64,000 bases of DNA from the NCBI GenBank assembly GCA_024672275.1, contig GCA_024672275.1_4536.1; one strand, given 5' to 3'. This DNA comes from a phage. Below are positions 1 to 21,685 of this stretch, in pieces. Position 1 is the stretch's first letter. Each line of letters starts with the position of its first letter. The notes beneath the pieces are model-generated. The model was not told the DNA's origin and made no database searches. It was given only the letters and a program-made list of their open reading frames with translations. Made by a program: the position numbers and the translations under genes.

Positions 1-1
1 C

Positions 2-406
2 TTTGTAACAGATCAGGCTGGAATAACAAAGAAAACTTCTTTGAAAGTGCTGTTGAGTGGTGCAGGGGTAACTAGAAACCGTCTGAATGCACGGGGAACA
101 GTAACTAGCACCTTGGCATTAGATATTAGTTCAGCAGAATATTTTTCTGCAACTTTATCTTCTGCAACGTGCACAATTAGTTTTACTAATATTCCAGTAG
201 CAACAAATGCAGTTTTAAACTTTACTTTAGCTTTGCGTCAAGGAAGTGGTGCAAATAAAGTCGTATGGCCTTCTTCTGTAAAATGGAGTTTTGGTCGCCC
301 CCCAGTTTTGAGTTATCGTCAAGGTGCAACAGACACTTTTGAGTTTATCAGTTATGATAATGGAGCAACTTGGACAGGTAGCTTAGTTTTAGCAGGAGTT
401 ATTTAA
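2..406 (+). CDS. tail-associated structural protein, probably 5'-truncated at window edge
   Basis: Frame appears open from nt 2 to the stop at 404-406 (track ORF 41..406 begins at a non-ATG codon); T/S/A/N-rich composition; first gene of the rightward tail series. Confidence 0.35.
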   Translation, partial: FVTDQAGITKKTSLKVLLSGAGVTRNRLNARGTVTSTLALDISSAEYFSATLSSATCTISFTNIPVATNAVLNFTLALRQGSGANKVVWPSSVKWSFGRPPVLSYRQGATDTFEFISYDNGATWTGSLVLAGVI

Positions 407-3282
407 TGTCAAGAGTTAAGCACAATATTGACAACACGTTTCAGTTGATTGAAGGGTTGGTTCAGTTTTTGGAAAGAAATACTGGTCTTACCATAGATCC
501 TACGGTTCAGCACTACATTATCAACCCACAAAACGTATTGGCGAACAACAGACACTTTATTAACTGGACAGCGCAGGAAGGGCAACCAAACGGTGACGCT
601 ACTACCGAAGGTCAATCTGTGCTTATCACTGGTTTTGCTTATGCATATTTGGCTACAGGAGATAAAAAATATCTTGAATCTGCCGAGAAGTATTGGCAAG
701 CCTATATAGATCACTTCTTCGGGGGCCAACCTATTCCTGATCCTCCAGCTAAGTATCGTCCCAACTGGATCATCAATGGTAAAGAACCACGTTTAGCACA
801 CTACCCTCTCACAGATGATGGGTATCCTACGCACGGTGGGTTCAAAGGTAGCATGATGACTTGGATTAACGGAAGGACTGTTATTCCTAAAGGTGCGCCA
901 CATTGGGGAGAATACTTAGATAAAGCTTGGTTTGCTTTCAATGGTAATCTTGGTTGGAACTCTGTTAACGCAACAGTGTATGCAACTAACCCAGATGGTT
1001 CAACCAACTGGAAAGAATATGGAGATCAGTGGGACGTTGAATGGATTATAGATCGTCTAGGACGTAAAGTTGATTGGGATGGTAACATTTTATCTACAGG
1101 TCACAGGTTCGCAGAATATGGAACAGTGCAACTTAAAAATACTTCTGTGAACGGGGACTATAAATTCAACTACGCTACATGCAATCCTGTAGAACACGGT
1201 GGATATCTGCTTAAGCGTAATGAGATGTGGCATAACCGTCCTGTAAACGTTCCGGTAGAGTTAGGTTATCAAGACAATGCTTCCGATGCTGAAACGTGGT
1301 GGTGTGATGCAAACTACTTGATGTATCAGATCACAGGAGAGAGAAAATACTGGCTTTGCTGGCAATCTTCTTTATTGTTGTGTCAAGACTACTCAAACAT
1401 CGATATGTTTGATAAATTCTTCCGTAGATCTACGACAGCAATAATTCCTTTTACAGATGGTATCTCGTATGATTACTCATACCCATCTACAGCAATACCT
1501 AAATATTCTCGTGACGAGTTAGGATACACAGTAATTCGCCAAGATGTTGCAGCACAAACAACTCTAGAACAACAGGCAGTTTGGTTCAGAGTGGATCAGA
1601 ATTCAAAACTGCGTATTGAGTTTCAAGGCGTAGATGATGCAGGGGAAGGTGTTCTTTTCCGTCCAGAGTTAGAATTAAGCAAGACTAAGAGTGAAACAGA
1701 CACAGTGACATATCGTTGTGGCTTACCTCTTGGTGCAGCTAATATGACTAAGATGGATATACCTTTATCTAGTTTTATGCGCACCGAACCTCCTGGAGGT
1801 GGTGTATATATTATTGCTGAACCCAGAATTATTGTTGACTGGGGAAGCAATACTGTGATACAATATAAATATGCAACTGGTATTGCTGGGACAAATAGTG
1901 ATCAGATAGTTTCTGCTAATATGGATTCAGATGGTGGTTTTACTGTTGGGTTTTGGTTAACACCAACTAAAACAGCCAATTTAAAATCTATTACATATCG
2001 TTCATACGCAGATGATTTTAACATCACTATTACGGATTCCGCAGGTTGGAGATGGTGGGCCATGTTAGAAAAAACAAATTCTGCATGGGTTACTAAAGCT
2101 TTAAGTCCTGCTGATTTCAAATTAAGCACTTGGCAACCCAATCATAACGACACAGAGACAAAACCTTCGTCAATAAACCTGACTGCTGTTGATCAGATCA
2201 ACATTGCATTGGATTCTGAACCTGCAAATGGCTTGACAGGGGCAATCGATTTTTATTGTGTTAACGATATCCCATCTTTGTATTCTTCAGCCGCTGGTGA
2301 TGATTACACAATGTATTTCAGGGTTACAGTTTCATCTGAAAATCCTTATACAGCAAAACTTGGAGATTGTACAATACTGGACTATAAACTTGACAGTTTG
2401 AATTATACTCCAGGAATCATTCCATTTTCCAATATTAGTGATCCTAACACAGCATTATATGACGGTTGGCGTGGTATTCCTTACCCAGGTTATCAATACC
2501 CATCCTTATATTGTTTTAAAGGGAGAGATATTGACTGGGTTCGTATGAACAACAGTATAGACTTTTTATATGATTCACAAATGTGGTTTTATAATAAGTT
2601 TGCCCCTGTAATGCCTGGGCCAATGGCACAAGCTTATGTTTGGGATCGTTGGGATGCTCATAAATATGGAAACAAAAATGAGTTCACAATGTATCATTGG
2701 AACGATAAAGCTTGGGATGGTTATGAAGCACGAGCATTCTTCTGTGCGTGTCATACGGTATACGAACTAAAGCGACGAGGAGCCGAAGTTCCTGAAAAAC
2801 TTTTAACAGTTTGTAAAAACTGGATCAACTACCTGAAGTGGTTCCAAGATAACAACGAAGGAAGAACACCAACAATATTTTATCCCAACGGAGAAGTGGC
2901 TGCGCCTGTAGATGACTTTACAAGTCACATGTCTGCGCTCTTTATGGCGGGATGTGCTATAATGGGGATGGCTGGATATGATTCAGAAATTCCTAACATT
3001 AAAATAGTAGCAGACCGCTGTTTTGAACTTATTCAGGAAAACTATATTGTTCTTGGTCCTAATCACGTTATGAATGGTTGTTGGAGTGCTGCTCCTAGAC
3101 CAGACAGTGATAACGGAGTCTTCTTTGGCTTCCACGCTGGAGAGTTGTTACGTGGTTTTGGGTTGTATGCTTTATACAAAAAACTTAATCCCCAAAATGC
3201 ATTACCTGTTTTGGATTCGAGCAATATTCCTGCACTTACTGTTTTGACAATGGCAAACATTAGTGTGGACGTTACCGAGTAA
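406..3282 (+). CDS. large tail/baseplate structural protein (958 aa)
   Basis: Long ORF with ATGA overlap to the upstream ORF; W/Y/N/D-rich, no enzymatic motif recognised; position in tail module. Confidence 0.45.
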   Translation: MSRVKHNIDNTFQLIEGLVQFLERNTGLTIDPTVQHYIINPQNVLANNRHFINWTAQEGQPNGDATTEGQSVLITGFAYAYLATGDKKYLESAEKYWQAYIDHFFGGQPIPDPPAKYRPNWIINGKEPRLAHYPLTDDGYPTHGGFKGSMMTWINGRTVIPKGAPHWGEYLDKAWFAFNGNLGWNSVNATVYATNPDGSTNWKEYGDQWDVEWIIDRLGRKVDWDGNILSTGHRFAEYGTVQLKNTSVNGDYKFNYATCNPVEHGGYLLKRNEMWHNRPVNVPVELGYQDNASDAETWWCDANYLMYQITGERKYWLCWQSSLLLCQDYSNIDMFDKFFRRSTTAIIPFTDGISYDYSYPSTAIPKYSRDELGYTVIRQDVAAQTTLEQQAVWFRVDQNSKLRIEFQGVDDAGEGVLFRPELELSKTKSETDTVTYRCGLPLGAANMTKMDIPLSSFMRTEPPGGGVYIIAEPRIIVDWGSNTVIQYKYATGIAGTNSDQIVSANMDSDGGFTVGFWLTPTKTANLKSITYRSYADDFNITITDSAGWRWWAMLEKTNSAWVTKALSPADFKLSTWQPNHNDTETKPSSINLTAVDQINIALDSEPANGLTGAIDFYCVNDIPSLYSSAAGDDYTMYFRVTVSSENPYTAKLGDCTILDYKLDSLNYTPGIIPFSNISDPNTALYDGWRGIPYPGYQYPSLYCFKGRDIDWVRMNNSIDFLYDSQMWFYNKFAPVMPGPMAQAYVWDRWDAHKYGNKNEFTMYHWNDKAWDGYEARAFFCACHTVYELKRRGAEVPEKLLTVCKNWINYLKWFQDNNEGRTPTIFYPNGEVAAPVDDFTSHMSALFMAGCAIMGMAGYDSEIPNIKIVADRCFELIQENYIVLGPNHVMNGCWSAAPRPDSDNGVFFGFHAGELLRGFGLYALYKKLNPQNALPVLDSSNIPALTVLTMANISVDVTE

Positions 3283-3290
3283 GGGGTAAA

Positions 3291-5444
3291 ATGAAACAAG
3301 CTATATTTACTGTCACGCGAGACAAGAGAGTAAATGCGAGTTCATTTAACTACACGACTGTTGACGGAACAGCAGTCGCTGGTAGAGATTATATTGCAAA
3401 ATCGGGAACACTTGTGTTCCCTGATGATGCTGATTCTGCTACTATTGTGGTTGAAGTATTTGAACGACCAAAGAACTCAATAGATCTTAACTTCTCCCTC
3501 CAAGTTTCAGGGATTAGTCAAAATAACATGATGGTTGAAACAACCATCAATTGTATTATAACTACTATCCAAGAAAATACTACTCCAATAACTTGGACTA
3601 CAAAAGACGTTAAAATGTTCTCTCCTATGTATTGGACAATAGATTCTCAAGCAACGGAAAGTTGTTCTATTGTATCTCATGGAGACTCTTTTACTGCAAG
3701 ATTTGTAAACAGAACAACAGCAGGTTTGGCAGGGGTTATCTGGAGCACAGTTGACAAATATGACCATAAAGGTGTTGGGTATTTGCCTCACACAGATTTA
3801 AGTTCAGAGAAACTTTGGTTTAAAATGGAAATTAGTCAAAACATGCCAGGTTTTAAAGAAGAACCTTTGGTGCCGACTTTGACTGTAACTCTCCTGGATA
3901 AAAGTGTTCATTATGTCAGTTTAGGATTCTACGCTTCAGATATTTCAGAAGATGGTAAAACAGCCACAATAAAGTTAGATTTTAGTAATATCTTTTCTGG
4001 CCCTAATAATGATATTCCTTTGGATATGAGTGCTGTAGATAATATTTTCTTCTCTTTGATTACAGCAAGGTATGAAAAAATAGAAGAGGTTGTACCTATT
4101 GACAGTCAAGAGGCTTGGTTTACTTTCACTCTTCTTGAACCTACTTCTGGTTACAGTATGATGAAAGTCAGCAACCTTGTCCAGCCTGAACATGATATTC
4201 GCATGTGCACATCTTATGATGATATGTATAACCTGACTCCAGAGAGAGTTATTTATAATACATATGCACTAGGTTATCGTGGAATGATTAACCATTACAA
4301 CGGAATGTCTCACTATTATGAGTTCTCATGGAACGGAACATCTTGGGCTTTAAATAGATCTGTTTTCCTGAATCCGGCTACAGAAGCTTGGCTTAACAGT
4401 TTCCATTCTATAGCTAATGAAAATGGCTACACAATAATGAACTCTTTGAGTTTTGAGTTGATGAGCACAGTTTGTCCTGTTGAATGGGTCCAGCATGATT
4501 GGAACGATGCTCTTGCAGCAACAGGGTATAAGCCTCCTAGTTACGTGTTGTCTCCAACTATTGACGAAGGCATGGAATATTTGCAAAATGTTATTAACAA
4601 AATAGCATCTATTTCTCAAGCTAATAACATTCCAGTCGTCATTCAAATTGGTGAACCTTGGTGGTGGTATAATACAGCAAGTAAAATGCCTTGCATATAC
4701 GATTACACTACCAAACTGGCATTCAACACAGAAACTGGCTTATTTGCACAAGATGCAGGAACAATAGATAATTATAAAACAGGAACGCCGTTTGACGAAT
4801 ACTATGCATTTTTGTCTCGTAAACTGGGGTTAAGAGTTACAAAGTTTGCAACAGACACCAGAGCAACTTATCCTGGAGCTAAAGTAACATTGCTTCCGTT
4901 CTTACCGTCAATTATTGGCAACGGTTTGATGGAGAAAGTTAACTTTCCGTCTGATTACTACATTCCTGAAGCTTTTGATTTTTACTGTTCAGAGTGTTAT
5001 GACTGGCTTCTGGAAGGTAAGATGATGAAAGCATTTGATGCAATTACCATACCACATGAAAAATTAGGTTTTGAATATTCTGATATTCACTATCTTTCAG
5101 GTTTTGTTCCAGATGCTACTCTTGCGCCTTTGTATGGCTTCGATCCTGAATCAAACTACCGCACGTATCTTTGGAAAATGATTATAGGTAATATAGTGTT
5201 GAACGCCAACAAGTTTAACGGACTTACACAATATATATGGGCCTATCCTCAAATAATGCACGATTCCATTACGGTAGTTAACTCTCAATCCCAAGTTTTC
5301 TATATGGGTAATGTGCCTTTGAATTGCTATTTGCAAGATATCACTCTTAAACAAGCAAATGTTGAGATTGCTACCATAAGTGGAATTACATTAGCTACTA
5401 AATCTGGAGAAGATTTAGTAACAACACAAAAATTTTATATATAG
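3291..5444 (+). CDS. tail structural protein, putative fibre or baseplate component (717 aa)
   Basis: SD AAGGGG upstream of ATG; long ORF in tail-gene series; no catalytic motif recognised. Confidence 0.45.
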   Translation: MKQAIFTVTRDKRVNASSFNYTTVDGTAVAGRDYIAKSGTLVFPDDADSATIVVEVFERPKNSIDLNFSLQVSGISQNNMMVETTINCIITTIQENTTPITWTTKDVKMFSPMYWTIDSQATESCSIVSHGDSFTARFVNRTTAGLAGVIWSTVDKYDHKGVGYLPHTDLSSEKLWFKMEISQNMPGFKEEPLVPTLTVTLLDKSVHYVSLGFYASDISEDGKTATIKLDFSNIFSGPNNDIPLDMSAVDNIFFSLITARYEKIEEVVPIDSQEAWFTFTLLEPTSGYSMMKVSNLVQPEHDIRMCTSYDDMYNLTPERVIYNTYALGYRGMINHYNGMSHYYEFSWNGTSWALNRSVFLNPATEAWLNSFHSIANENGYTIMNSLSFELMSTVCPVEWVQHDWNDALAATGYKPPSYVLSPTIDEGMEYLQNVINKIASISQANNIPVVIQIGEPWWWYNTASKMPCIYDYTTKLAFNTETGLFAQDAGTIDNYKTGTPFDEYYAFLSRKLGLRVTKFATDTRATYPGAKVTLLPFLPSIIGNGLMEKVNFPSDYYIPEAFDFYCSECYDWLLEGKMMKAFDAITIPHEKLGFEYSDIHYLSGFVPDATLAPLYGFDPESNYRTYLWKMIIGNIVLNANKFNGLTQYIWAYPQIMHDSITVVNSQSQVFYMGNVPLNCYLQDITLKQANVEIATISGITLATKSGEDLVTTQKFYI

Positions 5445-5452
5445 GAGTAAAA

Positions 5453-6757
5453 ATGTCAACTACAATTACTAATTTACCAGAAACATCAAAAGTTAATGGT
5501 TCTGATTACCTGGTTTTAGACCAATCTGATAAGACTGTTAAAAGCACAGTTTCCAACTTTCTTACTGACACTGGGGTGGTTTTAGCCACCCAGTTGAAAG
5601 ATACAGATGGAGCAGATTTAATACAATCCTCAAATGGTAATACTGTTCAGGAAGAGTTGAATAACAATCTTCTTAATAATCGTGAACAGTGGCGTCGTAG
5701 TCTTGCTGAGGCAGGGTTAACCCTTGTCAACGGTAGCTTTGAAGAAGGGGCTACAGTAAACAATAAGACGGATGCTGTTTGGCATATTGCTGGTGGGCAG
5801 TGCTATACGTGGGATGGTGCTTTCCCTAAAGCTGTTCCCTCTGACTCAACCACTACATCAACCGGTGGTGTTGGAACAGGTGCATGGGTTAGTGTTGGTG
5901 ATGCATCTTTGCGTACTGATTTATCTTCATCTGATGGTGCTGGGCTTATTGGTGTTAGCTCTGGAGGGACAGTACAAGGCTCCCTCTCCGACATTAAGAA
6001 CTTAATTAAGCACGCGCAGCCGCTTTCTGACAGACGCATCGTAGCTATTGCTCACCGTGGATATTCAGAGACGTATTTAGAGCAAACACTGATGGCTTAC
6101 AGTCAATGTAATGCTGATGTATTAGAAGTCGATATGCAAACTACATCAGATGGGTATGCTGTGTGCTTCCATGACAATGACTTGTCCCCTGCTACCGTAG
6201 GAGGTTCTGGGGCGGTAAAAGATAACACATACTCCACCGTTTCCGCATTACGTTTTACAAGAGCCGTCGGTACAAGATACGCAGACATGGCGGGCATACC
6301 GACATTGGGGTCAGTCTGCCGGATTGCTATGCGACGCGGTAAAATGCTTCACGCAGAAATAAAAGGCTACAGAACGTTAGAAGATTGCGCTCTTTACTCG
6401 AGCATAGTCAACCAATACGGCTTGAGTCCATACACCACATTTTCATGCTTCGACTTCGCTCCGTTGGCATACACCCACAACATAAATCCGCGTATTACCT
6501 ACGCACTAGAGTTAAACTCTTACGATAGTAGCATGGACGCTAACATAGCAGAGCTTGCGTCCTGGGGCGGGTCTGTGTTGTCTATAAACAAAAACATATT
6601 GAGCACTATAGGCAATAAGAAGCTTCGCGAGTGGGAGGCTATGGGGCTTACTTTGGCCGCATGGACGATATACACGGCAGAACAAATGCAGACCGTTGCC
6701 AATTACGGCATACGTCTTGTATATCTGGATAAAGATTTTTACAACATTATAGGTTAA
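5453..6757 (+). CDS. tail fibre protein with C-terminal glycerophosphodiester phosphodiesterase (GDPD) domain
   Basis: SD AGGAG; N-terminal fibre-anchor-like segment; C-terminal half has GDPD signature IAHRGYSETYLEQTLMAY...CNADVLEVDMQTTSDGYAVCFHDND. Confidence 0.7.
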   Translation: MSTTITNLPETSKVNGSDYLVLDQSDKTVKSTVSNFLTDTGVVLATQLKDTDGADLIQSSNGNTVQEELNNNLLNNREQWRRSLAEAGLTLVNGSFEEGATVNNKTDAVWHIAGGQCYTWDGAFPKAVPSDSTTTSTGGVGTGAWVSVGDASLRTDLSSSDGAGLIGVSSGGTVQGSLSDIKNLIKHAQPLSDRRIVAIAHRGYSETYLEQTLMAYSQCNADVLEVDMQTTSDGYAVCFHDNDLSPATVGGSGAVKDNTYSTVSALRFTRAVGTRYADMAGIPTLGSVCRIAMRRGKMLHAEIKGYRTLEDCALYSSIVNQYGLSPYTTFSCFDFAPLAYTHNINPRITYALELNSYDSSMDANIAELASWGGSVLSINKNILSTIGNKKLREWEAMGLTLAAWTIYTAEQMQTVANYGIRLVYLDKDFYNIIG

Positions 6758-6762
6758 CTGAT

Positions 6763-7530
6763 ATGAAGCAAATTATTAACTCCCGCAATTTCTCACACTG
6801 GGACTTTTTAAACACTGGTTCTGGTACAACGATGGTTGTGCCGGATGGTAGGTTACGTATGCAAAACCCTGATGACTCAAGCAGAGCAATGGTGATTCGC
6901 GATATCATGCTAATGCCTGGGGATACTGTGACCATCTATGGTATTGGAAGGACAACGTCGTTATCATCAGGCGCATTTATAATGGGGGTGGAGTACCCTG
7001 TTGGCAAACGCCTCGCTCAAGCTAACTTTATCCATAACGAAGACAGCTTACTTCTTAAATGTTCATGGAAATGTCCGGTAGACGCCGAACCGTGCACTGT
7101 TAGGCTTGCTTGCGGTCTTCCGAAATCAACAACAGCCATTGCGTATATGACAGACTTATGGATCGAGATTGACTCTGAAAACTTGAGTAGTCGACGCATC
7201 TTAATGGACGGTGTTCTTGAGATAAACGCTGGTGTGGCATCTATATCAACGGCATATGACCGTTGTAACGTAGGATCAATTAACGCGTCCAGCGTCAACG
7301 TTGACATTAGCCCAGCCGTCTTCACCGCAGGAGACCGTAGGCCTTTGGCGTTTGTCCAGCCGATTTTTAACACTAAAGAAACGTACTCATCCGGAGTTTT
7401 AATTCCTGTCGCTGACTTCACTAAGGCTGGGGTTCTAAACATTAGACTTCAAAACCCAGCTACAGGGAATCTCGTAGGTGTTACTGGAGCCAGTATTTAC
7501 AAAACAATAGCTTTCACTGTATATATTTGA
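6763..7530 (+). CDS. hypothetical structural protein (255 aa)
   Basis: ORF contiguous with the tail-gene series; no motif recognised. Confidence 0.35.
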   Translation: MKQIINSRNFSHWDFLNTGSGTTMVVPDGRLRMQNPDDSSRAMVIRDIMLMPGDTVTIYGIGRTTSLSSGAFIMGVEYPVGKRLAQANFIHNEDSLLLKCSWKCPVDAEPCTVRLACGLPKSTTAIAYMTDLWIEIDSENLSSRRILMDGVLEINAGVASISTAYDRCNVGSINASSVNVDISPAVFTAGDRRPLAFVQPIFNTKETYSSGVLIPVADFTKAGVLNIRLQNPATGNLVGVTGASIYKTIAFTVYI

Positions 7531-7543
7531 TTGCAATACACTA

Positions 7544-7566
7544 AAACCCCGCCGAAGCTGGGTTAG
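7544..7566 (-). terminator. putative intrinsic terminator (imperfect GC hairpin with TTCG loop, then T-run on minus strand)
   Basis: Minus-strand reading AACCCAGCTTCGGCGGGGTTTTAG immediately 3' of the ssb relic; stem has one mismatch. Confidence 0.3.
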
Positions 7567-7574
7567 TTCTATCA

Positions 7575-7620
7575 TCAGAACGGAATATCGTCGTCGAAAT
7601 CCATCGGAGGCTCATTACCT
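7575..7620 (-). pseudogene. orphan 3' fragment of an ssb gene (encodes ...NEPPMDFDDDIPF-stop)
   Basis: About 45-60 nt with roughly 85-90% identity to the 3' end of the full ssb at 20782..; upstream frame closed by TAA, so no full ORF; lies in the spacer between tail genes. Confidence 0.5.
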
Positions 7621-7769
7621 CCTTGTGGGCTTTATTGTTTGGGTGGCAGTTGCTGTTTATCAACCAAACCAACGCTGCGGTAGGTAGGGGGTTTTTGTTG
7701 TACCCCCTAACAAATTATTAGGTAGACTGTTTTAGTCAATTACGACTTAACTAACCTGAGAAAGTCCCT

Positions 7770-8060
7770 ATGGGAAATGAACCAGATAACGTAACTCTAG
7801 CCAGACTCGAGGAGAGACTGAGAAACATTTTCGAAAACCAAACCCGTGAATCAAGGGAAAGGGAGAAAATGGAAGAGTCTATTAAAAAACTAAGTGAGTC
7901 TATGGGCGACCTTAGTAACCGACTTAAACGGGTAGAGGAGAGCATCACTAAGTCTGAGCCTACTATTGAAGAGTTCATCACCATTAAACATAAAGTTGCT
8001 GGTGCTGGAATTTTTGGCAAGTTGGCATGGGCTGTAGCAGGTGCAAATGGGCTTCATTAA
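7770..8060 (+). CDS. hypothetical protein, coiled-coil with C-terminal hydrophobic helix (96 aa)
   Basis: ORF; charged heptad-like N-terminal part, C-terminal VAGAGIFGKLAWAVAGANGL segment. Confidence 0.4.
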   Translation: MGNEPDNVTLARLEERLRNIFENQTRESREREKMEESIKKLSESMGDLSNRLKRVEESITKSEPTIEEFITIKHKVAGAGIFGKLAWAVAGANGLH

Positions 8061-8191
8061 GGTTCACACAAGCTATGTCCTGCAAGCGCATGTCATCGCC
8101 ATGTGATAAAATGATGAAAACATATCGTAGCAGGGTTAATCTTGTCTTTAGTTACTATCGTACTAACTCAAAGTGTTGTCACTACCACTGC

Positions 8192-8213
8192 AAGCCCCTC
8201 CAAAGAGGGGCTT
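8192..8213 (+). other. perfect 9-bp stem-loop AAGCCCCTC-CAAA-GAGGGGCTT in an untranslated spacer
   Basis: Palindrome read directly; sits in a ~177-nt non-coding gap inside the tail operon; no clear T-tract. Confidence 0.35.
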
Positions 8214-8237
8214 ACTTAGAAAAACAAAGAGGTTGTT

Positions 8238-8546
8238 ATGAACGAAATGTTCTCCCAAGGTGGTAAAGGTTCAACCGGAATCTTAACCAATAAACAAGCA
8301 GTAGCCCGTCACTTTGGAGTTAAACAATCTGAGGTTGTTTACTTCTCAATTGGTGTGGATTTGGGTGGGTATAAGGTTATCTATGACAAGGAGACGCAAA
8401 GGGCGTATTCCCTACCTGCTGATATTGCCCCAGGTACTACTGCCATTAGTCTTAGTGCTGCTGTACTTGTGCATTCAGCGGGTTCTGTAGACCTTGGGGA
8501 ATTAGCTATATCTTGTGATTTAAAAAGTAATGAGAACGCACTATGA
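8238..8546 (+). CDS. hypothetical protein (102 aa)
   Basis: ORF with SD GAGGT upstream; no motif recognised. Confidence 0.4.
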   Translation: MNEMFSQGGKGSTGILTNKQAVARHFGVKQSEVVYFSIGVDLGGYKVIYDKETQRAYSLPADIAPGTTAISLSAAVLVHSAGSVDLGELAISCDLKSNENAL

Positions 8547-8785
8547 GAAAATTTTTAATAGGTATGTTCTGTACATATCCCGATAATAAAGTCAGTTCTA
8601 CGAAAGTCTGGAACGCTGTAGGCATGTCGGTTATGACAGGCATGTTTATCTTTTTAGGAATAGAAAAAGAAATTCCTGAATGGATGGGTTGGGCTTTTGT
8701 TTTCATGATAACCCCTTCTCGCCTCATGAAAAATCTTATTGATTTACGTTGGGGCAGATCACAATCTACTAAAGAGGATGACTAA
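8543..8785 (+). CDS. small membrane protein (80 aa)
   Basis: ATGA overlap with upstream ORF; two or three hydrophobic segments (FLIGMFCTY, GMSVMTGMFIFLGI, WMGWAFVFMI). Confidence 0.4.
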   Translation: MRKFLIGMFCTYPDNKVSSTKVWNAVGMSVMTGMFIFLGIEKEIPEWMGWAFVFMITPSRLMKNLIDLRWGRSQSTKEDD

Positions 8786-10272
8786 TGGACGAATATGGTT
8801 TGACAGATGCGGGATTTGTAATCCCGACTTTTGACGATGTTCTAAACAATTATATGACAGCAGTAAAAAACACATTTGGTGCAGATGCAGCCACTTCGGA
8901 AGATACTGTGATCGGACAACTGTTTAGAATAATTGCATACACAGATTACACATTGTGGGAAGGTATGCAAGGTGTTTATAATACTCAAACACTGGATGGT
9001 GCAGAAGGTATTTATCTTGATGAAATCTTTTCTAAACGCGGTTTCTATCGAGCAGGTGCAGCAGCAAGTACAGGTTATGCATATGTTAAGAGTAATAACA
9101 AAGCAGCTTGGACTTATGAGCTAGGCACGGATATTTACTTCAACTCTGACAGTGATATGAACTACTATGTTAGCACACCAACTATGTTGAATGCTAAGAT
9201 TGCAGCTTATCAAATCACTCGTGCTAATGCAACTGCTACAGGTGTTCCAAATATTACTTTTTATGCACAAAGTGCGGTGGATGGAGGACTAAACAGTAAA
9301 ACACTTGCACCTGGTTCTTCTACATTTATAACCGATCTTGAAACTTTTATCAAGGCAAACTTAACAGAGGCTGATCGTAGTCTTGTATTTTCTGATTCTG
9401 GTAACTTGTCAATTGGTTTTACTTCTTTAACCAGTGATACTCCAGTGGGACTAGTAACTCCTATCAAATTTTATGCTAGTGTTCCAGTTGGAACAAAATG
9501 GAGTGAAATTCCGGTAGTTGCAGCAGAGAAAGGATACAATCCGGTGGGTGTGGAGTCTATTACAGGAATATCTTCTACCTTTACAGGTTATCTTGATAGT
9601 GGTAACTTCTATTCGTTTTCTCCTGGTCGAGATGTTGAGACAGATGCAGAATTCCGCTCTCGTTTCAATGACAACGTTGACGAAGCTAACGCAGGGACAC
9701 GAGCAGCTATTGTGAAAGCTCTGCTACTTACAGATGGTGTTACTAAGGTGAAGATTTATGATAACCCTACATTACATGATCAAGAACATGCTCCAGCTAT
9801 GACTTTCCAGACTATAGTTTATGGTGGCAGTGCAGAAGAAATTGCAAATGTTATCTATAAAACCAAACCAATCAACACTTTGACACACGGAACAACTAAC
9901 ATAACAGTTACAACAGAAGATGGAGGACAAGAAATTATTCGCTTCTCTCCTGGTGCTTCTGCTATGTATTCTGTAAAACTTGTTTATCAAACTGTCAACG
10001 GAACAACTTTAAGTGGAACAGAAAAACAAAACATCGTAGAAGCTTTACAAAACCTGCAAGCTTACTTTGAGTTAGGTTCTTCAGTAACGAACGATCAAAT
10101 CAAAGGTGTTATTTATGCAGCACTTGCTTTTGGACGCTTGACTTCTCTTCGTGTTTATGTTAAACTTAATACTGAGGATGACAGTAAATATACAGAGAAT
10201 AATATAGTTCCTGCTTATAATGTTGTCCCTTCTTTTGACCTTGATAACATTTCTTACGAGTATGGAGTGTAA
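8785..10272 (+). CDS. baseplate J-like protein (495 aa)
   Basis: N-terminus MDEYGLTDAGFVIPTFDDVLNNYMTAVKNTFGADA resembles the baseplate J / gp47 family N-terminal pattern; position in tail module. Confidence 0.55.
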   Translation: MDEYGLTDAGFVIPTFDDVLNNYMTAVKNTFGADAATSEDTVIGQLFRIIAYTDYTLWEGMQGVYNTQTLDGAEGIYLDEIFSKRGFYRAGAAASTGYAYVKSNNKAAWTYELGTDIYFNSDSDMNYYVSTPTMLNAKIAAYQITRANATATGVPNITFYAQSAVDGGLNSKTLAPGSSTFITDLETFIKANLTEADRSLVFSDSGNLSIGFTSLTSDTPVGLVTPIKFYASVPVGTKWSEIPVVAAEKGYNPVGVESITGISSTFTGYLDSGNFYSFSPGRDVETDAEFRSRFNDNVDEANAGTRAAIVKALLLTDGVTKVKIYDNPTLHDQEHAPAMTFQTIVYGGSAEEIANVIYKTKPINTLTHGTTNITVTTEDGGQEIIRFSPGASAMYSVKLVYQTVNGTTLSGTEKQNIVEALQNLQAYFELGSSVTNDQIKGVIYAALAFGRLTSLRVYVKLNTEDDSKYTENNIVPAYNVVPSFDLDNISYEYGV

Positions 10273-10274
10273 AA

Positions 10275-10904
10275 ATGGCAGTGAGTGTTGACCATGTAAC
10301 AACTTGGGCCAGTATCAATGAAGATGTTAAAAACCTTCTGATTGAAGATTTTAAATCTTCTCCTAACATTGTCAAGCTCCTCTACATCGTATCCAGTGAA
10401 AAGCAAAAGATAGATCAGGCAATGATCTATCTTGCTAAACACCGCTTGATCTCTACAGCCACAGGCAAATACCTAGATATTCTAGGGGAAGAAATGGGGA
10501 TCGAACGTAATGGCTCTGATGATGAAGAGTATAGAACAATATTAAAAATCAGGGCTTACCGCGTAGCCTCATCGGGGACTCGTGGTGACATAATTGATAT
10601 CTTCGCCCGTTTCACAGGAACAGAGCGTGAAACGCTTAATACTTACGTAGGTTTGAATAAAACCTTTGATGTGTTTTTCTACAACCTGTGTCTTCAATCT
10701 GATCAAGCTTTAGAGCAGTTGCTAAGTGTTTTCCCTATTATTAGTAGCTACCGTCTTGGAGCAAAAGCAGGATCAGCTTTTGGTTTTAGTTCTTATTATG
10801 CTACCAAACCGCCTCATGGTATTGGTGGTTTAGGTTCCCTGTACATGGAATCTACTGGGGATGAAACAGGACGCATGTGTACGCTTCTCAAGCAAATAGA
10901 TTAA
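10275..10904 (+). CDS. hypothetical baseplate/tail protein (209 aa)
   Basis: ORF tightly coupled downstream of the baseplate J-like gene. Confidence 0.4.
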   Translation: MAVSVDHVTTWASINEDVKNLLIEDFKSSPNIVKLLYIVSSEKQKIDQAMIYLAKHRLISTATGKYLDILGEEMGIERNGSDDEEYRTILKIRAYRVASSGTRGDIIDIFARFTGTERETLNTYVGLNKTFDVFFYNLCLQSDQALEQLLSVFPIISSYRLGAKAGSAFGFSSYYATKPPHGIGGLGSLYMESTGDETGRMCTLLKQID

Positions 10905-10913
10905 GGAGTTTAA

Positions 10914-11975
10914 ATGGCGAAGCCAATATATTATCCTGACTGGGCTACACAAACTGTAACGCTCCCAGGAACTTTAAACACAAACAAAATTAGACCTAAA
11001 GAAACCATCCGCACAGTTGGTATGGATTATGGTCAAATCATGACTTGCGAAGAAATGAACTGGATTCTTAATAATATCGGTTTATGGATTCGCTATTTGG
11101 TGGATGACTTTCTTCCAACTTTACCTAATACCTACTTGCCTTTAGTGGGAACTAAGATTACAATGGCAGGTGATGCTACTGGTGAGGCTACTTGGAACGG
11201 TAACAAAGAAGTTACTTTATCTATCCAAGTTCAAGATAACAGTCATAATCACTTGTCGGCAAACATTACAGATGCTACTAGTTCAACAGTAACACCAAAC
11301 GTGCTGGTAAAACGTGATGCGGGTGGTGCTATTTATGGTGGTGATGTTTATGTTAACGGTACTTCCACAACAGATCCTGCAACACTGTTCTTCAAAAACT
11401 TTGCAGGACAAACAAATGGTGAGATTTCTGCCGAATATCAAAGCGGAGGTCAGCTTTACATCTATCGCAGAAATCCTAGTACAGGTGGTGTATCGGCAGG
11501 TATTCGTTTATATGATGCGGGTTATGTTCTAATTGATAATCCAAGATCTAACAGTGGACAAGACACTTCAAACGGAAATGCTTTAGTTCGCTTAGATTAT
11601 CTGAACTCTCGTTTGACTTCCCTTCAGAACACATTGCAGACGAATATTAACACTGTTCAAAACAACTTGAATAATGTTAACAACAACCTCTCTTCTCGTA
11701 TAAACAATGTAGAAAGTAATCATCAAAGTCAGATTACAAATAACTACAACTATGCTAACGGAACCTTTGTAAGAGATATTCGTTATACTAGCCAAGGTGT
11801 GTATTATCCACCAGGGAACGAGGTTTCTTGGACTTATATCTGTTCTTCTGGTTATGTTCTTTCTGGTATTATCGTACAGGAAACAGGACGTAGCTCTGCG
11901 GATAACATCGGTGGGGTTTACTTCAAACGCCTCCAGCGCAACGTTAACGGAAACTGGTACGATATTGGAGGCTAA
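10914..11975 (+). CDS. tail fibre protein (353 aa)
   Basis: SD AAGGAG; T/N/S/G-rich with fibre-like segments (VKRDAGGAIYGGDVYVNG; N/Q-rich coiled segment LQNTLQTNINTVQNNLNNVNNNL). Confidence 0.5.
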   Translation: MAKPIYYPDWATQTVTLPGTLNTNKIRPKETIRTVGMDYGQIMTCEEMNWILNNIGLWIRYLVDDFLPTLPNTYLPLVGTKITMAGDATGEATWNGNKEVTLSIQVQDNSHNHLSANITDATSSTVTPNVLVKRDAGGAIYGGDVYVNGTSTTDPATLFFKNFAGQTNGEISAEYQSGGQLYIYRRNPSTGGVSAGIRLYDAGYVLIDNPRSNSGQDTSNGNALVRLDYLNSRLTSLQNTLQTNINTVQNNLNNVNNNLSSRINNVESNHQSQITNNYNYANGTFVRDIRYTSQGVYYPPGNEVSWTYICSSGYVLSGIIVQETGRSSADNIGGVYFKRLQRNVNGNWYDIGG

Positions 11976-12521
11976 ATGATATTTACAAACTTTAAAAAAT
12001 ATATTCCTGAAGACCCTGAACTAAAAGAATTGGTAGAAGCAGAGAACATTCTTTTTCTTCGTTGCGACCAAGGTTACGATTGGTATGATTTACGTAGCAC
12101 AGAATTCAATAACGATAAAATGAAAGTCGTTTTTGATGATCAAAATCGTATTGTGTTTTGGAATACTGATCCTACACTACTTTGCCCTGAAGATCTTTCT
12201 ATAGCACAAGTAGACTTTAATATAGATACTTTTGAGGATATTAGGAACAAGGTTCTGGATTTAGAAACCTTAACTCTTAAGGATAAAGAGTATTCCCGTG
12301 AAGAGTTGATGACACAAGCTAGTGCAAAAATTCGCTCTTTACAAGAAACAGCGGTAGCACTTATAACACCTTTACAGTATGCTAAAGATTTAGAAATGGC
12401 TACTGAAGACGAATTAGCTTATCTTAAAAATCTTCAAGTTTATGTAGTTAAACTAAATCGTGTTCCGCTTCAAAAAGACTATCCTTACGCTATAGATTGG
12501 CCTACATTACCGACAGAATAA
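11976..12521 (+). CDS. hypothetical acidic protein, possibly fibre assembly/chaperone by position (181 aa)
   Basis: ORF directly after the tail fibre gene with TAAATG-type coupling; no motif recognised. Confidence 0.3.
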   Translation: MIFTNFKKYIPEDPELKELVEAENILFLRCDQGYDWYDLRSTEFNNDKMKVVFDDQNRIVFWNTDPTLLCPEDLSIAQVDFNIDTFEDIRNKVLDLETLTLKDKEYSREELMTQASAKIRSLQETAVALITPLQYAKDLEMATEDELAYLKNLQVYVVKLNRVPLQKDYPYAIDWPTLPTE

Positions 12522-12530
12522 GGGATCACT

Positions 12531-12866
12531 ATGGAATTTCAAGAAGCATGGGGACTTGCAAAGGATGCAATAATCCCTTTAATCGGAGTCATCTGGTTCT
12601 TTTTCAAACAAAAAATGGATAAATTCGGCTCTGATCTTGAGGAAATGGAGGAGAAAAGTCGAGAGCTAGAGAAGAAGTTGGTCTTTGTTGAATCAACTTA
12701 TGCAACTAAAGCCGAACTTACCCAGATGCTAAATCAAATTAACTCTACATTAATGGCAAATAATAACACCCTTGAGCAAAAAATTGAAAAGATTATGGAC
12801 CTCAAGAATGCGACTATCCAAATGATGCTAGATGACATAGTTAAACGTACACAGAATAAGGGGTAA
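12531..12866 (+). CDS. hypothetical protein with N-terminal hydrophobic segment and coiled coil (111 aa)
   Basis: ORF; IIPLIGVIWFFF hydrophobic stretch followed by a charged helical region. Confidence 0.35.
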   Translation: MEFQEAWGLAKDAIIPLIGVIWFFFKQKMDKFGSDLEEMEEKSRELEKKLVFVESTYATKAELTQMLNQINSTLMANNNTLEQKIEKIMDLKNATIQMMLDDIVKRTQNKG

Positions 12867-12869
12867 TTA

Positions 12870-15800
12870 ATGGCAACATTCCCAACATATCCAGCAACGT
12901 CTCTCGAACAGGGCGTAGACCTGGTTATTTTCTCATCTAACCAACTCCATGATGTTATTAATGGAAGTGCTACAGAGAGTATTGAAACAGAATCAGGGTT
13001 GATACCAACCCTGAGAAAAGCCCTTGTTGACAACTTTTTCTTTAAAAGCCCATTAGATTGGGCGCAAGGCACAAACGAAACAGTTTTTAACCAACTTCGT
13101 TATTTCCAGAATGGAGTATTGAGCGGTTATTACTATGCCCCTAACGCTACATTGGTTAACCCAATCCCTATGCAAGGGACTCCAGTAGGAGATAACAACT
13201 GGGTATTGTGGGGACTGAAGACAGAACAATTGGCAACAGAAGTCACCCCTTGGGTATATTCTGGTGCAACTGGTTATGAAACAGTAATCAGTCCTCCTTA
13301 CATCTTTGATAGTGCTATTGTTACGATTAATGGTGTTATTCAGGTTCTGGGGGAAGCTTTCCGTATAGAAGATAGTAAGATCATCTTATCTGAACCTTTG
13401 GGACACGATCCTGCAACAGGACTGCCAAACAAACTTTTTGCTTATATTGGCAAAATCGTAGCTTCAGCAGATACAGATCCTAATCTAGAGAACCGTCTTG
13501 TTAGTTTAGAAACAAAAACGGAAGAACTAACAGAAAGCATGGATAAAGTCCCTCTGCAAACTATTGCTCGTAAGTATGGTTTGTTAGATGATGAGGTGGC
13601 TTACGCAACAGCAGGTCAATCGTTAACAGGGATTAAAGCTCTGTATGATCCGGTAGCGCAGTCTTCCTACACATTACCTCCTAACATCACAGGCACTTTA
13701 ACATCCTTGTCTGTTTCTGGAGTAATGACTTATTCTGGAGGATCTGTAGACCTTTCTGCACTGGCTGTTGAGCGTGGACAGTTTGTTCATTTGCCTACAA
13801 GCTTTGGTAATAATGTAACTCTGACAGCTAAAAATCAGACGATTGGACGTGGCGCTGGTCGTTATCGTTGGGCTGGAAGTTTACCAAAAAGTATTTTGGC
13901 CTCCGATACATTGGAGACAAGCGGTGGATTAGGTCCAAATGCATGGGTTCTGACCAATACAGAAGGACTGTTAACCCCTCGTGGTGGAACATACAACGAT
14001 TTATTCGATGTTGTCTACTTGTCCGAATTTGCTAACAATACAACTACCTATACCACACCAGAAGCAGCTTTCCAGGCGGCACTGTTAGCAGCAAAAGCTT
14101 CGAAAAGCAAGATTCTCGATGCTTACGGTTGCGATATGACTTTCACGACAAGCTCTTTTGATATTCAAGATATCACTTTGCGTGGTGGTGTGTTCCGTGG
14201 TCAACGCGACTATCGTGTGCAGAATGCTACAGTAGAAGGCACAACTTTCCGTAACTCTCGTGTTATGTATTGGGGTGGTGCTGTGCGCATGTTCGATTGT
14301 TTGTGGGACGGTGCTCCTCGCCCAGGTCAAGTTGGTAGCTTGGTATTCCAAGGCAACCCAATATCAGGTACTTTTGAAATTGATAACTGTACTTTTAAAA
14401 ACGGGTTGTATGGCATCCTTCAACAAGGAACAGGGGAACCAGTAACACGTGGTGTCTTCCGTAACCTTACCTTCATGGACATGCAAGGTGATGCAATAGA
14501 ACTGAACGTCATCAATAAACATTATGATGATGGTTGTGTGATTGAGAATATTTACCTGTCTAATATCGATGGGACTAACGCTCCTATTCCTCTGTCCAAC
14601 TGGGGTATCGGTATCGGTGTAGCTGGTAAAGGACCATATGGTTACGGAATCCCTGATGATCAATATTGCAAGAATATTACAATTCGTAACGTTTTTGCAA
14701 AACGTTGTCGTCAGATTGTCCACGTAGAAGTTGGTCGTAATATCTCTATCGAAAACATTCATGGCGATCCAGACCAGACCGTATCTGTTGGGACAGGTTT
14801 GGCAACTGGCGCAGTTGTAATGTATGGAAGTAAAGATTTTACGATTGACGGTGTTTACGGAGAGCCTAAAACAGACGGTAGCACACTTGCAAGTAATATC
14901 CGTATGATTTATTTGGAGTGGGGAACTAACGCAGTTCTGGACGAAGAGGGTAATCCGGTAGTTCCGGCACAGGGTAGACCTTCAAACCCATGCTTTAACT
15001 ATTCTGTTCGTAACATTCACACCAAAACTGGGCGTGTTTTTGCGGGAGTTTCCGCTGGGCCAGGTTATGAAAACAGAGTTAGCTTTGAAAATATTCGTTG
15101 CGCTGCATTGCAGTTGTTCGGTATAGCTTCTTGGCTTTCAATGTCTAACATCACCTGTAATATCTTCGATTGTGTTGGTCAACCTGAATCTGGGCCAGGA
15201 ACATTTTATGATGGATTCTTCCGTAGAGAAAAATCTGTTCTTGAAATGGTTAACGTAAACTGTTACCCAGATGGCAAGACGATGGTTACTGGTCGTCCAC
15301 AGTGGAGCCGTTGCCGTTACTCGGATATTCATCGTGTCAACTGTAATGTTGAAGCTAATATGTATACCAATATCGCAGGTGGTATTGGAGCTATTGTAGG
15401 GACAACGGGCAAAGTTTATTACTTAGAGCCTAACCCTAGTCGAAACATTGATGGAATGCATTTCCCAACAGGGAAAGAGTTTGACAAAGGTGATATGATA
15501 GTCAAGGCGGATAATACGTTCTTCCTTGTAACAACAAGTGGGGCATATATTCCAGATATCCCAGCTTTCGGTATTCGAGCTACACAGGCAGGAGATACAT
15601 TCCTGACACAGAACTTGACTCCTAACGGGACAGCAACAAATGCTTCTTGGTTGTATCATTACCCTCTGTCAGCAGGGACACGTATCCGTATTCCTGGTGC
15701 TGGTGTAGGTGGAGCAGATTTGGACACAGTTATTACTCGTGCACCTTATCAAGATAATGATACGTGGACTAACCCAGTTAAAATAGACATTGCAGATCCA

Positions 15801-15923
15801 ATTGTAACGCCTACAAGTGCTGGAGTTAGAATTAAAACCATACCTAATGATTCCAGTAATGTTTCTGTAGGTAATACTGCGGTTATTCGCCCAACGCCAG
15901 TAGTAGATGTGCCAACAACCTAA
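12870..15923 (+). CDS. tailspike protein with parallel beta-helix (pectate-lyase-like) repeats; putative depolymerase (1017 aa)
   Basis: SD AAGGGG; repeated beta-helix-like coils (GNPISGTFEIDNCTFKNGLYGILQ, NLTFMDMQGDAIELNV, IENIYLSNIDGTNAPI, ITIRNVFAKRCRQIVHVEVGRNISIENIHGD). Confidence 0.6.
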   Translation: MATFPTYPATSLEQGVDLVIFSSNQLHDVINGSATESIETESGLIPTLRKALVDNFFFKSPLDWAQGTNETVFNQLRYFQNGVLSGYYYAPNATLVNPIPMQGTPVGDNNWVLWGLKTEQLATEVTPWVYSGATGYETVISPPYIFDSAIVTINGVIQVLGEAFRIEDSKIILSEPLGHDPATGLPNKLFAYIGKIVASADTDPNLENRLVSLETKTEELTESMDKVPLQTIARKYGLLDDEVAYATAGQSLTGIKALYDPVAQSSYTLPPNITGTLTSLSVSGVMTYSGGSVDLSALAVERGQFVHLPTSFGNNVTLTAKNQTIGRGAGRYRWAGSLPKSILASDTLETSGGLGPNAWVLTNTEGLLTPRGGTYNDLFDVVYLSEFANNTTTYTTPEAAFQAALLAAKASKSKILDAYGCDMTFTTSSFDIQDITLRGGVFRGQRDYRVQNATVEGTTFRNSRVMYWGGAVRMFDCLWDGAPRPGQVGSLVFQGNPISGTFEIDNCTFKNGLYGILQQGTGEPVTRGVFRNLTFMDMQGDAIELNVINKHYDDGCVIENIYLSNIDGTNAPIPLSNWGIGIGVAGKGPYGYGIPDDQYCKNITIRNVFAKRCRQIVHVEVGRNISIENIHGDPDQTVSVGTGLATGAVVMYGSKDFTIDGVYGEPKTDGSTLASNIRMIYLEWGTNAVLDEEGNPVVPAQGRPSNPCFNYSVRNIHTKTGRVFAGVSAGPGYENRVSFENIRCAALQLFGIASWLSMSNITCNIFDCVGQPESGPGTFYDGFFRREKSVLEMVNVNCYPDGKTMVTGRPQWSRCRYSDIHRVNCNVEANMYTNIAGGIGAIVGTTGKVYYLEPNPSRNIDGMHFPTGKEFDKGDMIVKADNTFFLVTTSGAYIPDIPAFGIRATQAGDTFLTQNLTPNGTATNASWLYHYPLSAGTRIRIPGAGVGGADLDTVITRAPYQDNDTWTNPVKIDIADPIVTPTSAGVRIKTIPNDSSNVSVGNTAVIRPTPVVDVPTT

Positions 15924-15929
15924 TGGAAT

Positions 15930-15956
15930 AGAGGGGGGATTCCCCCCTCTTCTTCC
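15930..15956 (+). terminator. GC-rich hairpin AGAGGGGGG-ATT-CCCCCCTCT downstream of the tailspike gene
   Basis: Perfect 9-bp palindrome followed by TCTTCC; approximate coordinates. Confidence 0.45.
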
Positions 15957-15986
15957 AATAGAATGGTCTAATGATAGGAGAGATAA

Positions 15987-18011: not shown

Positions 18012-18013
18012 CA

Positions 18014-18039
18014 GAAGCCCCGAAAGGGGCTTTCTTTTT
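18014..18039 (+). terminator. intrinsic terminator GAAGCCCC-GAAA-GGGGCTTT + T-tract
   Basis: GC stem with GAAA loop followed by CTTTTT, directly after the fibre gene stop. Confidence 0.6.
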
Positions 18040-18052
18040 ATGGAGGGTTTAA

Positions 18053-20725: not shown

Positions 20726-20726
20726 G

Positions 20727-20756
20727 AAAAGGAGCCATTCGGCTCCTTTCTTTTAT
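20727..20756. terminator. bidirectional terminator hairpin AAAGGAGCC-ATTC-GGCTCCTTT between convergent fibre and ssb genes
   Basis: Perfect palindrome flanked by A-run upstream and T-run downstream. Confidence 0.5.
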
Positions 20757-20781
20757 AAAAACTCTTTATAAATCAATAAGA

Positions 20782-21669: not shown

Positions 21670-21685
21670 TATTATCTCCTCTACA

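Follow-up and report, generated by a model that had tools for sequence, protein, structure and literature searches.

The element described here lies in a stretch of phage DNA of 64,000 nucleotides (nt), contig GCA_024672275.1_4536.1 of GenBank assembly GCA_024672275.1, which as a whole is called the window. In the spacer that follows a tailspike gene and its 255-amino-acid partner gene, the minus strand carries a short relic of the 3′ end of an ssb gene. This relic is very probably a pseudogene fragment derived from a siphophage of the ZCEC08/DS8/ViII-E1 type, and would have been carried in with a receptor-binding cassette. The window itself belongs to a Phapecoctavirus, a phAPEC8-like myophage of ~150 kb (Stephanstirmvirinae).

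The relic and its reading frame

The spacer between the 255-amino-acid gene (6763–7530, plus strand) and the next plus-strand open reading frame (ORF; 7770–8060) was read on both strands. Minus-strand translation of 7575–7658 gives KQQLPPKQ-stop-SPQGGNEPPMDFDDDIPF-stop, comprising 27 codons and a stop codon, the TGA at 7575–7577, with two extra in-frame stops (TGA and TAG, 7569–7574) directly after it. The relic encodes the exact SSB tip peptide PPMDFDDDIPF and thereby the acidic C-terminal tip D-F-D-D-D-I-P-F (MDFDDDIPF-stop, 7575–7604). A degenerate pattern for DDDIPF followed by a stop occurs exactly twice in the window, at 7575–7595 and 20782–20802, both on the minus strand, and none was expected from 100 shuffles of the window. 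The translation, together with two such sites against none expected in shuffles, indicates that the relic is real and not a product of chance. A reading made from the sequence alone (the sequence-only reading) had placed an ssb relic of about 45–60 nt at this position; the relic is there, but it is longer, with 84 nt of coding DNA plus ~45 nt of 3′ spacer and hairpin.

There is no open frame of ~100 amino acids with an OB-fold of the PF00436 type at this site, only the 27 ssb-homologous codons, and these are interrupted in frame by a nonsense codon, TAA at 7632–7634, 18 codons before the end. The relic is a non-functional remnant of an ssb 3′ end and not an SSB gene. The DNA upstream of it is unrelated to ssb. 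This non-ssb flank (7659–7684) aligns in the window, G17, SP5M, PhAPEC5, ukendt, the prophage of Escherichia coli isolate 602 and the metagenomic contig L018. The possibility that the 25–35 nt upstream of the relic are further, more decayed ssb sequence found no support, as local alignments to five ssb genes were no better than those of shuffles (p at least 0.18). No Rfam-type RNA family was found in 7300–8300, and two sub-threshold matches elsewhere in the window were attributable to chance.

Homology to siphophage ssb genes and the adjoining tailspike cassette

When 7531–7700 was compared with GenBank phages by sensitive blastn, 431 records were returned. The best matches outside other copies of the relic were the ssb 3′ ends of 45–48 kb siphophages, namely ZCEC08, HC6, DS8, LPST10, the ‘seszw’ series and IME207. 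They reached 82–86% identity over 115–124 nt (E down to 7e-31) and spanned the hairpin, the stop cluster and ~27 codons. Local blastn extended the ZCEC08 match to 84% over 138 nt, with E values down to 6e-35 across the siphophage ssb results, and the ssb of ViII-E1 was 87.9% identical to the relic copy of E. coli 602.

Motto (a T1-like phage), ZCEC08, ViII-E1 and DS8 all have ssb convergent with their last tail-fibre or tailspike gene, and one hairpin is common to both genes. The window shares with this junction (Macdonaldcampvirus, Deseoctovirus; Drexlerviridae for Motto) a homologous spacer, the hairpin AACCCCGC-loop-GCGGGGTT, the stop cluster TGATGATA(A/G) and the last 27 ssb codons. Unlike the siphophage junction, the gene in the window is cut after those 27 codons and joined to unrelated DNA, and its hairpin has an inverted loop and a mismatched stem.

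The homology does not stop at the relic. Three metagenomic contigs, L013, L021 and L022, come from siphophages of the ZCEC08/DS8/ViII-E1 type, with a backbone on both sides of the cassette that is 84–92% identical to ZCEC08, DS8 and ViII-E1. Each has the order Tail_spike_N+GDPD tailspike gene, 255-amino-acid gene (82% amino acid identity) and an intact convergent SSB gene (PF00436, 166–167 amino acids), followed by the recombinase, exonuclease and helicase genes of the ZCEC08/DS8-type recombination module. Window positions 5810–7656 align with L013 4048–5894 in a single alignment of 1849 nt at 87.1% identity, which ends 82 nt into ssb. Window positions 5878–7660 align with L021 and L022 at 89.2% (with L021 as a single alignment of 1783 nt). 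By segment, identity to L013 was 92.8% for the GDPD part, 82.4% for the 255-amino-acid gene, 82.2% for the spacer and hairpin and 85.2% for the relic. Because the homology runs uninterrupted from the receptor-binding genes into an intact ssb, the relic appears to have been transferred together with the cassette.

The tailspike gene (5453–6757, plus strand) encodes 434 amino acids, with a backbone-type N-terminus and Tail_spike_N (PF18668, residues 92–150) and then an imported receptor-binding/enzymatic domain of the glycerophosphodiester phosphodiesterase family (GDPD; PF03009, residues 201–426). Its partner (6763–7530, plus strand) follows directly. The partner had no Pfam or PHROG match, and no relatives by tblastn in GenBank phages or in IMG/VR; a large protein collection held 13 homologues from metagenomes and genomes. 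All homologues that were inspected stand directly after a GDPD tailspike gene, in most of which Tail_spike_N was also called. As a separate observation, the GDPD tailspike gene and the 255-amino-acid gene form a conserved two-gene unit (window 5453–7530; loci L012–L015 and L019–L022). Besides siphophages of the ZCEC08/DS8 type, its carriers are E. coli and Citrobacter prophages of lambdoid appearance, where an Acyl_transf_3 gene adjoins it, and a phage that has an SNF2 helicase.

Extent of the variable block

Of the phages in GenBank, 51 covered at least 80% of positions 1–20800, and the relatives listed were 96–98% identical. EF1-1, the closest relative, is collinear with window 1–5896 at 97.8% and with 8080–21800 at 98.3%, the latter in a single alignment of 13.7 kb that includes the resident ssb-like gene. 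Homology to ukendt breaks at 5904 (megablast) or 5913 (blastn) and is back at 8047. From these break and resumption points the variable segment covers ~5897–8046/8079, that is, the body of one tailspike gene and what follows it. Judged by these alignments with EF1-1 and ukendt, the segment is an exchangeable receptor-binding cassette of the tailspike, in which the N-terminal anchor has been kept and the variable part replaced.

The sequence-only reading had suggested that the relic is the mark of a recombination event among the genes for receptor-binding proteins, which holds, and that the ~13 kb between 7.7 and 20.7 kb may have been inserted or exchanged, which does not. Alignment with related phages did not show 7.7–20.7 kb as a variable cassette; the exchanged block lies around the relic and on its other side. 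Since 8080–21800 is conserved backbone, present in relatives that have no relic, insertion of a 13 kb block between two ssb ends is refuted.

On the left, homology of the tailspike gene to its Phapecoctavirus relatives ends at 5896/5904–5913, within a crossover zone at the end of Tail_spike_N (5810–5913, plus strand). This zone is a DNA patch conserved across phage families, with 73–80% identity to the tailspike genes of SP5M, PBM-3 and ZCEC08. The window is EF1-1-like up to ~5896 and L013-like from ~5880, with the motif GGGTTAGTGTT in common.

On the right, 7540–8046 matches phi G17 and SP5M, two Gamaleyavirus (N4-like) phages, at 86% identity, with the order relic, short flank, GC hairpin, conserved leader and 96-amino-acid ORF. 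The intergenic region at 7685–7769 (plus strand), with an 8-bp GC hairpin (7685–7709, −13.6 kcal/mol) and the leader upstream of the ORF, is 86–96% identical to G17, SP5M, ST4, G7C, PhAPEC5/7 and unannotated DNA of the Agtrevirus phages AV101, A221, PC3 and PH4. The ORF itself (7770–8060, plus strand) encodes a truncated N4 gp63-like small protein of 96 amino acids (phrog_5211, E 2e-35, profile positions 1–92 of 112); its homology to N4 gp63 follows the annotation of PhAPEC5 (PhAPEC5_66). It is 86% identical at the nucleotide level to G17 and SP5M up to 8046, where it is cut. Its hydrophobic C-terminal end is lost, NGLH-stop stands in its place, and microhomology at the junction is at most 2–3 nt. 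This cut and the lost end identify the ORF as a second passenger fragment, from a Gamaleyavirus-like phage. The insert is a nested mosaic of a siphophage-type cassette with the relic and a Gamaleyavirus-type flank, set in a Phapecoctavirus backbone. From 8047 (ukendt) or 8080 (EF1-1) the backbone resumes in the intergenic region upstream of a 102-amino-acid tail gene (8047–8237, plus strand).

A gp63-like fragment was also seen in other myophages. In the Agtrevirus AV101 (locus L017, 3001–3194), and also in A221, PC3 and PH4, an unannotated 5′ fragment of this gene with its leader is present, in AV101 after the last tailspike gene. Like the relic, the gp63-like fragment in myophages is a scar that has hitch-hiked with the exchange of tailspike genes.

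The same relic in other phages

In the Gamaleyavirus phages phi G17, SP5M and PhAPEC5, the relic follows immediately after various tailspike or depolymerase genes. It has the same kind of position in ukendt and L018, both with a Phapecoctavirus-type backbone (L018 is a contig that has the same GDPD cassette as the window without the gp63 fragment), and in the P22-like prophage of E. coli isolate 602, where the integrase gene lies on its other side. A very decayed copy is present in AV101, where everything upstream of the tip has been deleted and no junction is left. All of these carriers except AV101 have the same non-ssb flank, while internal deletions in the Q-rich repeat differ. The shared flank next to the relic across carriers suggests one ancestral truncation event, the product of which has since spread. 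In the Phapecoctavirus-type genomes ukendt (L006, 9543–9581) and L018 (897–1280) the relic is joined to a different flank of ~175 nt, not of the Gamaleyavirus type, so that this group has at least two relic contexts.

The Gamaleyavirus PBM-3 has a relic with a 5′ boundary that looks different from that of the other copies. Its K1 endosialidase cassette was compared with ZCEC08. The tailspike body was 99.3% identical and the intergenic region with the hairpin was identical at 258/258 positions; identity then fell to 92% over the last 12 ssb codons and to 80% over the next 10, and beyond that the two were unrelated. This step pattern suggests that a homologous crossover took place recently at the ssb tip, within a relic that is older and more diverged. 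Moreover, different live-ssb alleles of the tip stand behind the common junction, DDDIPF in the window, SP5M and PBM-3 and the DDSIPF type in L018 and PhAPEC5. Together, the step pattern and the allele mosaicism suggest that the relic can act as a passive, reusable right-hand homology arm for importing receptor-binding cassettes. Live siphophage ssb ends are still ~85–90% identical to the relic, which makes such passive reuse plausible; the gene stays conserved in siphophages that co-infect, and of the roles considered for the relic this evolutionary one has the best support. The earlier idea of the ssb 3′ end as a homology arm is supported in spirit by the PBM-3/ZCEC08 pattern.

Proposed history of the insert

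The observations can be put into a sequence of events. The fragment would be what is left of the ssb of a 45–48 kb siphophage: its final 27 codons and stop codon, followed by the 3′ spacer and terminator hairpin. In such phages this gene and the last gene for a tail fibre or tailspike meet tail-to-tail. When the GDPD tailspike body and its 255-amino-acid partner gene were copied out as a cassette, the ssb fragment would have been carried along. The left crossover is placed in the conserved Tail_spike_N (~5880–5913) and the right end inside the ssb 3′ end. In the Phapecoctavirus, the result would be a mosaic insert of ~2.1 kb (~5897–8046) in a single hypervariable tailspike slot. The Gamaleyavirus arrangement of the right part, 7540–8046, suggests passage through such a phage, or exchange with one. 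Tail_spike_N as the left arm and the relic as the right arm would allow repeated swaps of receptor-binding genes between unrelated phages. The contiguous homology, the extent of the variable block, the junction common to other phages and the decay of the relic are shown directly; the direction and order of the transfers are inferred.

Several points weigh against this account or its parts. Identities of 82–93% reveal neither the exact donor nor the order of transfer (from siphophage through podophage to myophage, or the other way round), and a closer donor than this was not found in any collection searched. The homology-arm role draws on one clear case, PBM-3/ZCEC08, and on allele mosaicism. 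The four intact tips among nine copies differ only synonymously, a pattern that would also fit weak selection. Finally, the imperfect hairpin makes even a terminator role doubtful in the window.

A wider proposal is that the ssb-tip relic and terminator, in some lineages with the gp63-like fragment, go beyond a passive scar and form a recurrent right arm across phage families, which with Tail_spike_N on the left would make a de facto site of cassette exchange. This we put forward tentatively, and think it somewhat likelier to be wrong than right. If true, receptor-binding genes would be shuttled among siphophages (with a live ssb arm), N4-like podophages, phAPEC8-like and Agtrevirus myophages and P22-like prophages, and lineages that keep the arm would gain host-range evolvability.

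The hairpin and a possible terminator function

The spacer at 7531–7574 (37/45 positions identical to L013) derives from the siphophage tailspike/ssb junction and holds a decayed bidirectional terminator hairpin and the extra stops. The hairpin at 7545–7564 reads CCCCGC-CGAA-GCTGGG, with one internal stem mismatch. It was calculated to fold at −9 to −11.9 kcal/mol, a z score of about −1 relative to shuffles, and was not called by the terminator scan. A hairpin had been predicted here as the relic's own terminator, and it does exist, but with the mismatch, the weak fold and the negative scan a terminator role is doubtful here. The hairpin is perfect in ZCEC08, PBM-3, G17, Motto, L013 and AV101, and in sister copies a perfect stem is followed by TTAGTTTTAT. 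On the plus strand, the donor hairpin of G17, PBM-3, Motto and L013 is CCCCGC-TTCG-GCGGGG, as against the inverted loop (CGAA) and one changed stem base in the window. The loop inversion looks like a hairpin flip, an event of the template-switch type.

A hairpin adjoins the relic in every copy in which that end is present, the truncated copy of ukendt being without it. In PhAPEC5 the stem carries paired changes (CCCCAC/GTGGGG in place of CCCCGC/GCGGGG), and in SP5M and E. coli 602 a different hairpin has taken the place of the original. Because a hairpin has been retained or replaced across copies, a role as terminator after the tailspike gene is plausible in general. The hairpin is probably the only physiological part under selection, as a stop for transcription after the tailspike gene, and it is weakened here.

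It could then be argued that the whole element is kept only as a terminator of the tailspike operon, possibly a bidirectional one, and that the ssb codons are baggage without any part in recombination. The persistence of a hairpin beside the relic in all copies but the truncated one, the paired changes in PhAPEC5 and the replacement hairpins in SP5M and E. coli 602 agree with this, and the PhAPEC5 record annotates the hairpin as a terminator. However, the stem in the window is mismatched and folds no better than shuffles, and the stepwise drop in identity within the PBM-3/ZCEC08 relic would be left unexplained. This explanation, which we consider unlikely, is in any case compatible with the capture of a siphophage ssb end rather than exclusive of it.

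The nine-codon reading frame

Downstream of the TAA at 7632–7634, the sole start codon in the relic frame is the ATG at 7602–7604, which opens a nine-codon ORF, MDFDDDIPF (7575–7604, minus strand). This agrees with the sequence-only reading, which saw the frame as closed by an upstream stop and as allowing at most this ORF. In E. coli SSB, the C-terminal tail SSB-Ct (...DFDDDIPF) is the docking motif for partner proteins (PDB 1eqq/4mz9 chains). The relic resembles it in encoding the exact tip PPMDFDDDIPF, and differs from E. coli SSB in that it has no OB-fold, contains an in-frame stop, lies antisense to the operon and has decayed in sister copies.

The tip peptide is intact in 4/9 copies (the window, L018, SP5M and PBM-3) and broken in the other five, with MGFSDDIPL in G17, MGPDNSIPF in PhAPEC5, a premature stop in AV101, a frameshift in E. 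coli 602 and truncation in ukendt. This decay in 5/9 copies argues against a functional micro-ORF. The relic codons appear to be under no selection and to have no function of their own, and the intact tips would be due to recent refreshment from live ssb genes.

Expression of the nine codons as a putative decoy of the host SSB tip, competing for SSB partners, is very improbable. In its favour are the intact peptide, with only synonymous differences among the window, SP5M and PBM-3, a Shine–Dalgarno-like AAGGAGG 13 nt upstream of the ATG and one weak sigma-70-like match (7663–7634, minus strand). The AAGGAGG, however, consists of Q-G-G codons inherited from the intact donor ssb. The single promoter-like match (9/12) corresponds to a chance expectation of 0.7, and the consensus scan called no terminator and just this one weak promoter-like site, as often as chance would give. 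The ORF lies antisense to the late structural operon and its tip has been destroyed in the five copies named above. The synonymous-only pattern can be explained by divergence in live ssb genes before capture, or by refreshment.

The resident ssb-like gene and host ssb genes

The window contains a resident gene for a 295-amino-acid protein with an SSB-type C-terminal tip (...EEPPMDFDDDIPF; 20782–21669, minus strand). It is annotated as ssb in relatives and is collinear with gp177 of EF1-1. The sequence-only reading took the relic to be a copy of its 3′ end, at ~85–90% nucleotide identity, and hence the mark of a duplicated junction. The identity is indeed 36/40 (90%), but it is confined to 7574–7613, the EPPMDFDDDIPF codons, and there is no match beyond. 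Over the last 12 codons and the stop, the resident gene matches the relic at 35/39 positions and siphophage ssb genes at 32–37/39. Over the preceding 15 codons the resident gene falls to 18/45, the level of chance, while siphophage ssb genes stay at 33–39/45. Across the whole 84-nt coding part the counts are 53/84 for the resident gene, 71–73/84 for the ssb ends of L013, ZCEC08 and DS8 and 67/84 for ViII-E1. In the 60 nt 3′ of the stop, the terminator and flank of the resident gene are unrelated to those of the relic, and L013 is nearly identical. No homology of the relic to the resident gene was thus detected in the linker or the 3′ flank, beyond the universal tip codons; by the terms of the sequence-only reading itself, a likeness limited to these codons refutes a duplication.

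Chromosomal and plasmid ssb genes of E. coli match the relic over ~44 nt only, at 88–91%, an extent like that of the resident gene. Capture from a host or plasmid ssb was ruled out on this ground, and duplication of the phage's own gene on the evidence of the flanks and of gene order in relatives. That the relic is a duplicate of the resident 3′ end, with ~13 kb (7.7–20.7 kb) inserted or exchanged through that homology, is hardly credible: the two do share 36/40 nt on the same strand and the resident gene, too, is convergent with a tail gene, but the likeness is that of any host or plasmid ssb tip, both relic flanks differ from the resident gene yet match siphophage ssb and its terminator, and 8080–21800 is backbone at 98.3% identity to EF1-1, found in relatives without the relic.

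The resident protein itself had no PF00436 or OB-fold match; its best PHROG was phrog_4477, a family of unassigned function, and its likeness to SSB is confined to the last ~27–50 residues. Possibly it is another kind of protein, which shares with host SSB just the C-terminal docking tip.

Relation to known systems

Gene remnants at mosaic junctions are classical in lambdoid and other phages, where they are discussed as modular evolution and scars of illegitimate recombination. The relic is like them in being a truncated, decaying piece of a neighbouring gene at the edge of an exchanged module, with no reading frame of its own. It is unlike them in that the same scar and junction recur after different tailspike genes in Gamaleyavirus, Phapecoctavirus and a P22-like prophage (and, decayed, in Agtrevirus), in having a live counterpart in ZCEC08/DS8-type siphophages, and in its apparent reuse for homologous crossovers. 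The feature is of a known kind, a mosaic scar; what it adds, as a minor point, is the recurrence of one scar in several phage families and its apparent reuse.

That tailspikes exchange their receptor-binding domains by way of conserved N-terminal domains (XD/TD domains of Ackermannviridae, G7C-type tailspikes) is well documented: experiments have demonstrated it in Ackermannviridae (PMC11414711), and comparative genomics led to its proposal (PMC10791037). The left boundary in the window agrees with what these papers propose, as it lies at the end of the conserved Tail_spike_N domain, PF18668. The recombination sites that they discuss are 5′ conserved domains, in contrast to the 3′ boundary in the window, which is made of the ssb-tip relic and the gp63-like fragment. 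The word ‘intergenic’ was not found in either paper, nor ‘remnant’ in the one searched for it. In a limited full-text search of the literature, no earlier account of ssb remnants near tailspike genes came up, which is no proof of novelty.

The interpretation of such a scar depends on carrying the comparison past the conserved peptide codons: once this is done, an unrelated phage family replaces the resident gene as the deduced donor, and the exchanged block is placed across the relic from where it had been sought. As a marker, the relic makes it easy to trace tailspike or depolymerase cassettes that pass horizontally between phage families, and it points to the 3′ boundary of the cassette, which the literature on N-terminal-domain recombination leaves undefined. 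For host-range engineering, Tail_spike_N and the ssb-tip/terminator patch could serve as natural homology arms.

Neighbouring reading frames

A 79-amino-acid ORF (8027–8266, plus strand) lies across the junction between cassette and backbone, overlaps both neighbours and has no family match; it is probably not a gene. The conserved 102-amino-acid ‘tail protein’ (8238–8546, plus strand) shows homology, with 73–75% nucleotide identity, to the N-terminal domain of the PBM-3 endosialidase and the SP5M tailspike. It matches phrog_7992 at positions 327–419 and looks like a free-standing tailspike adaptor domain.

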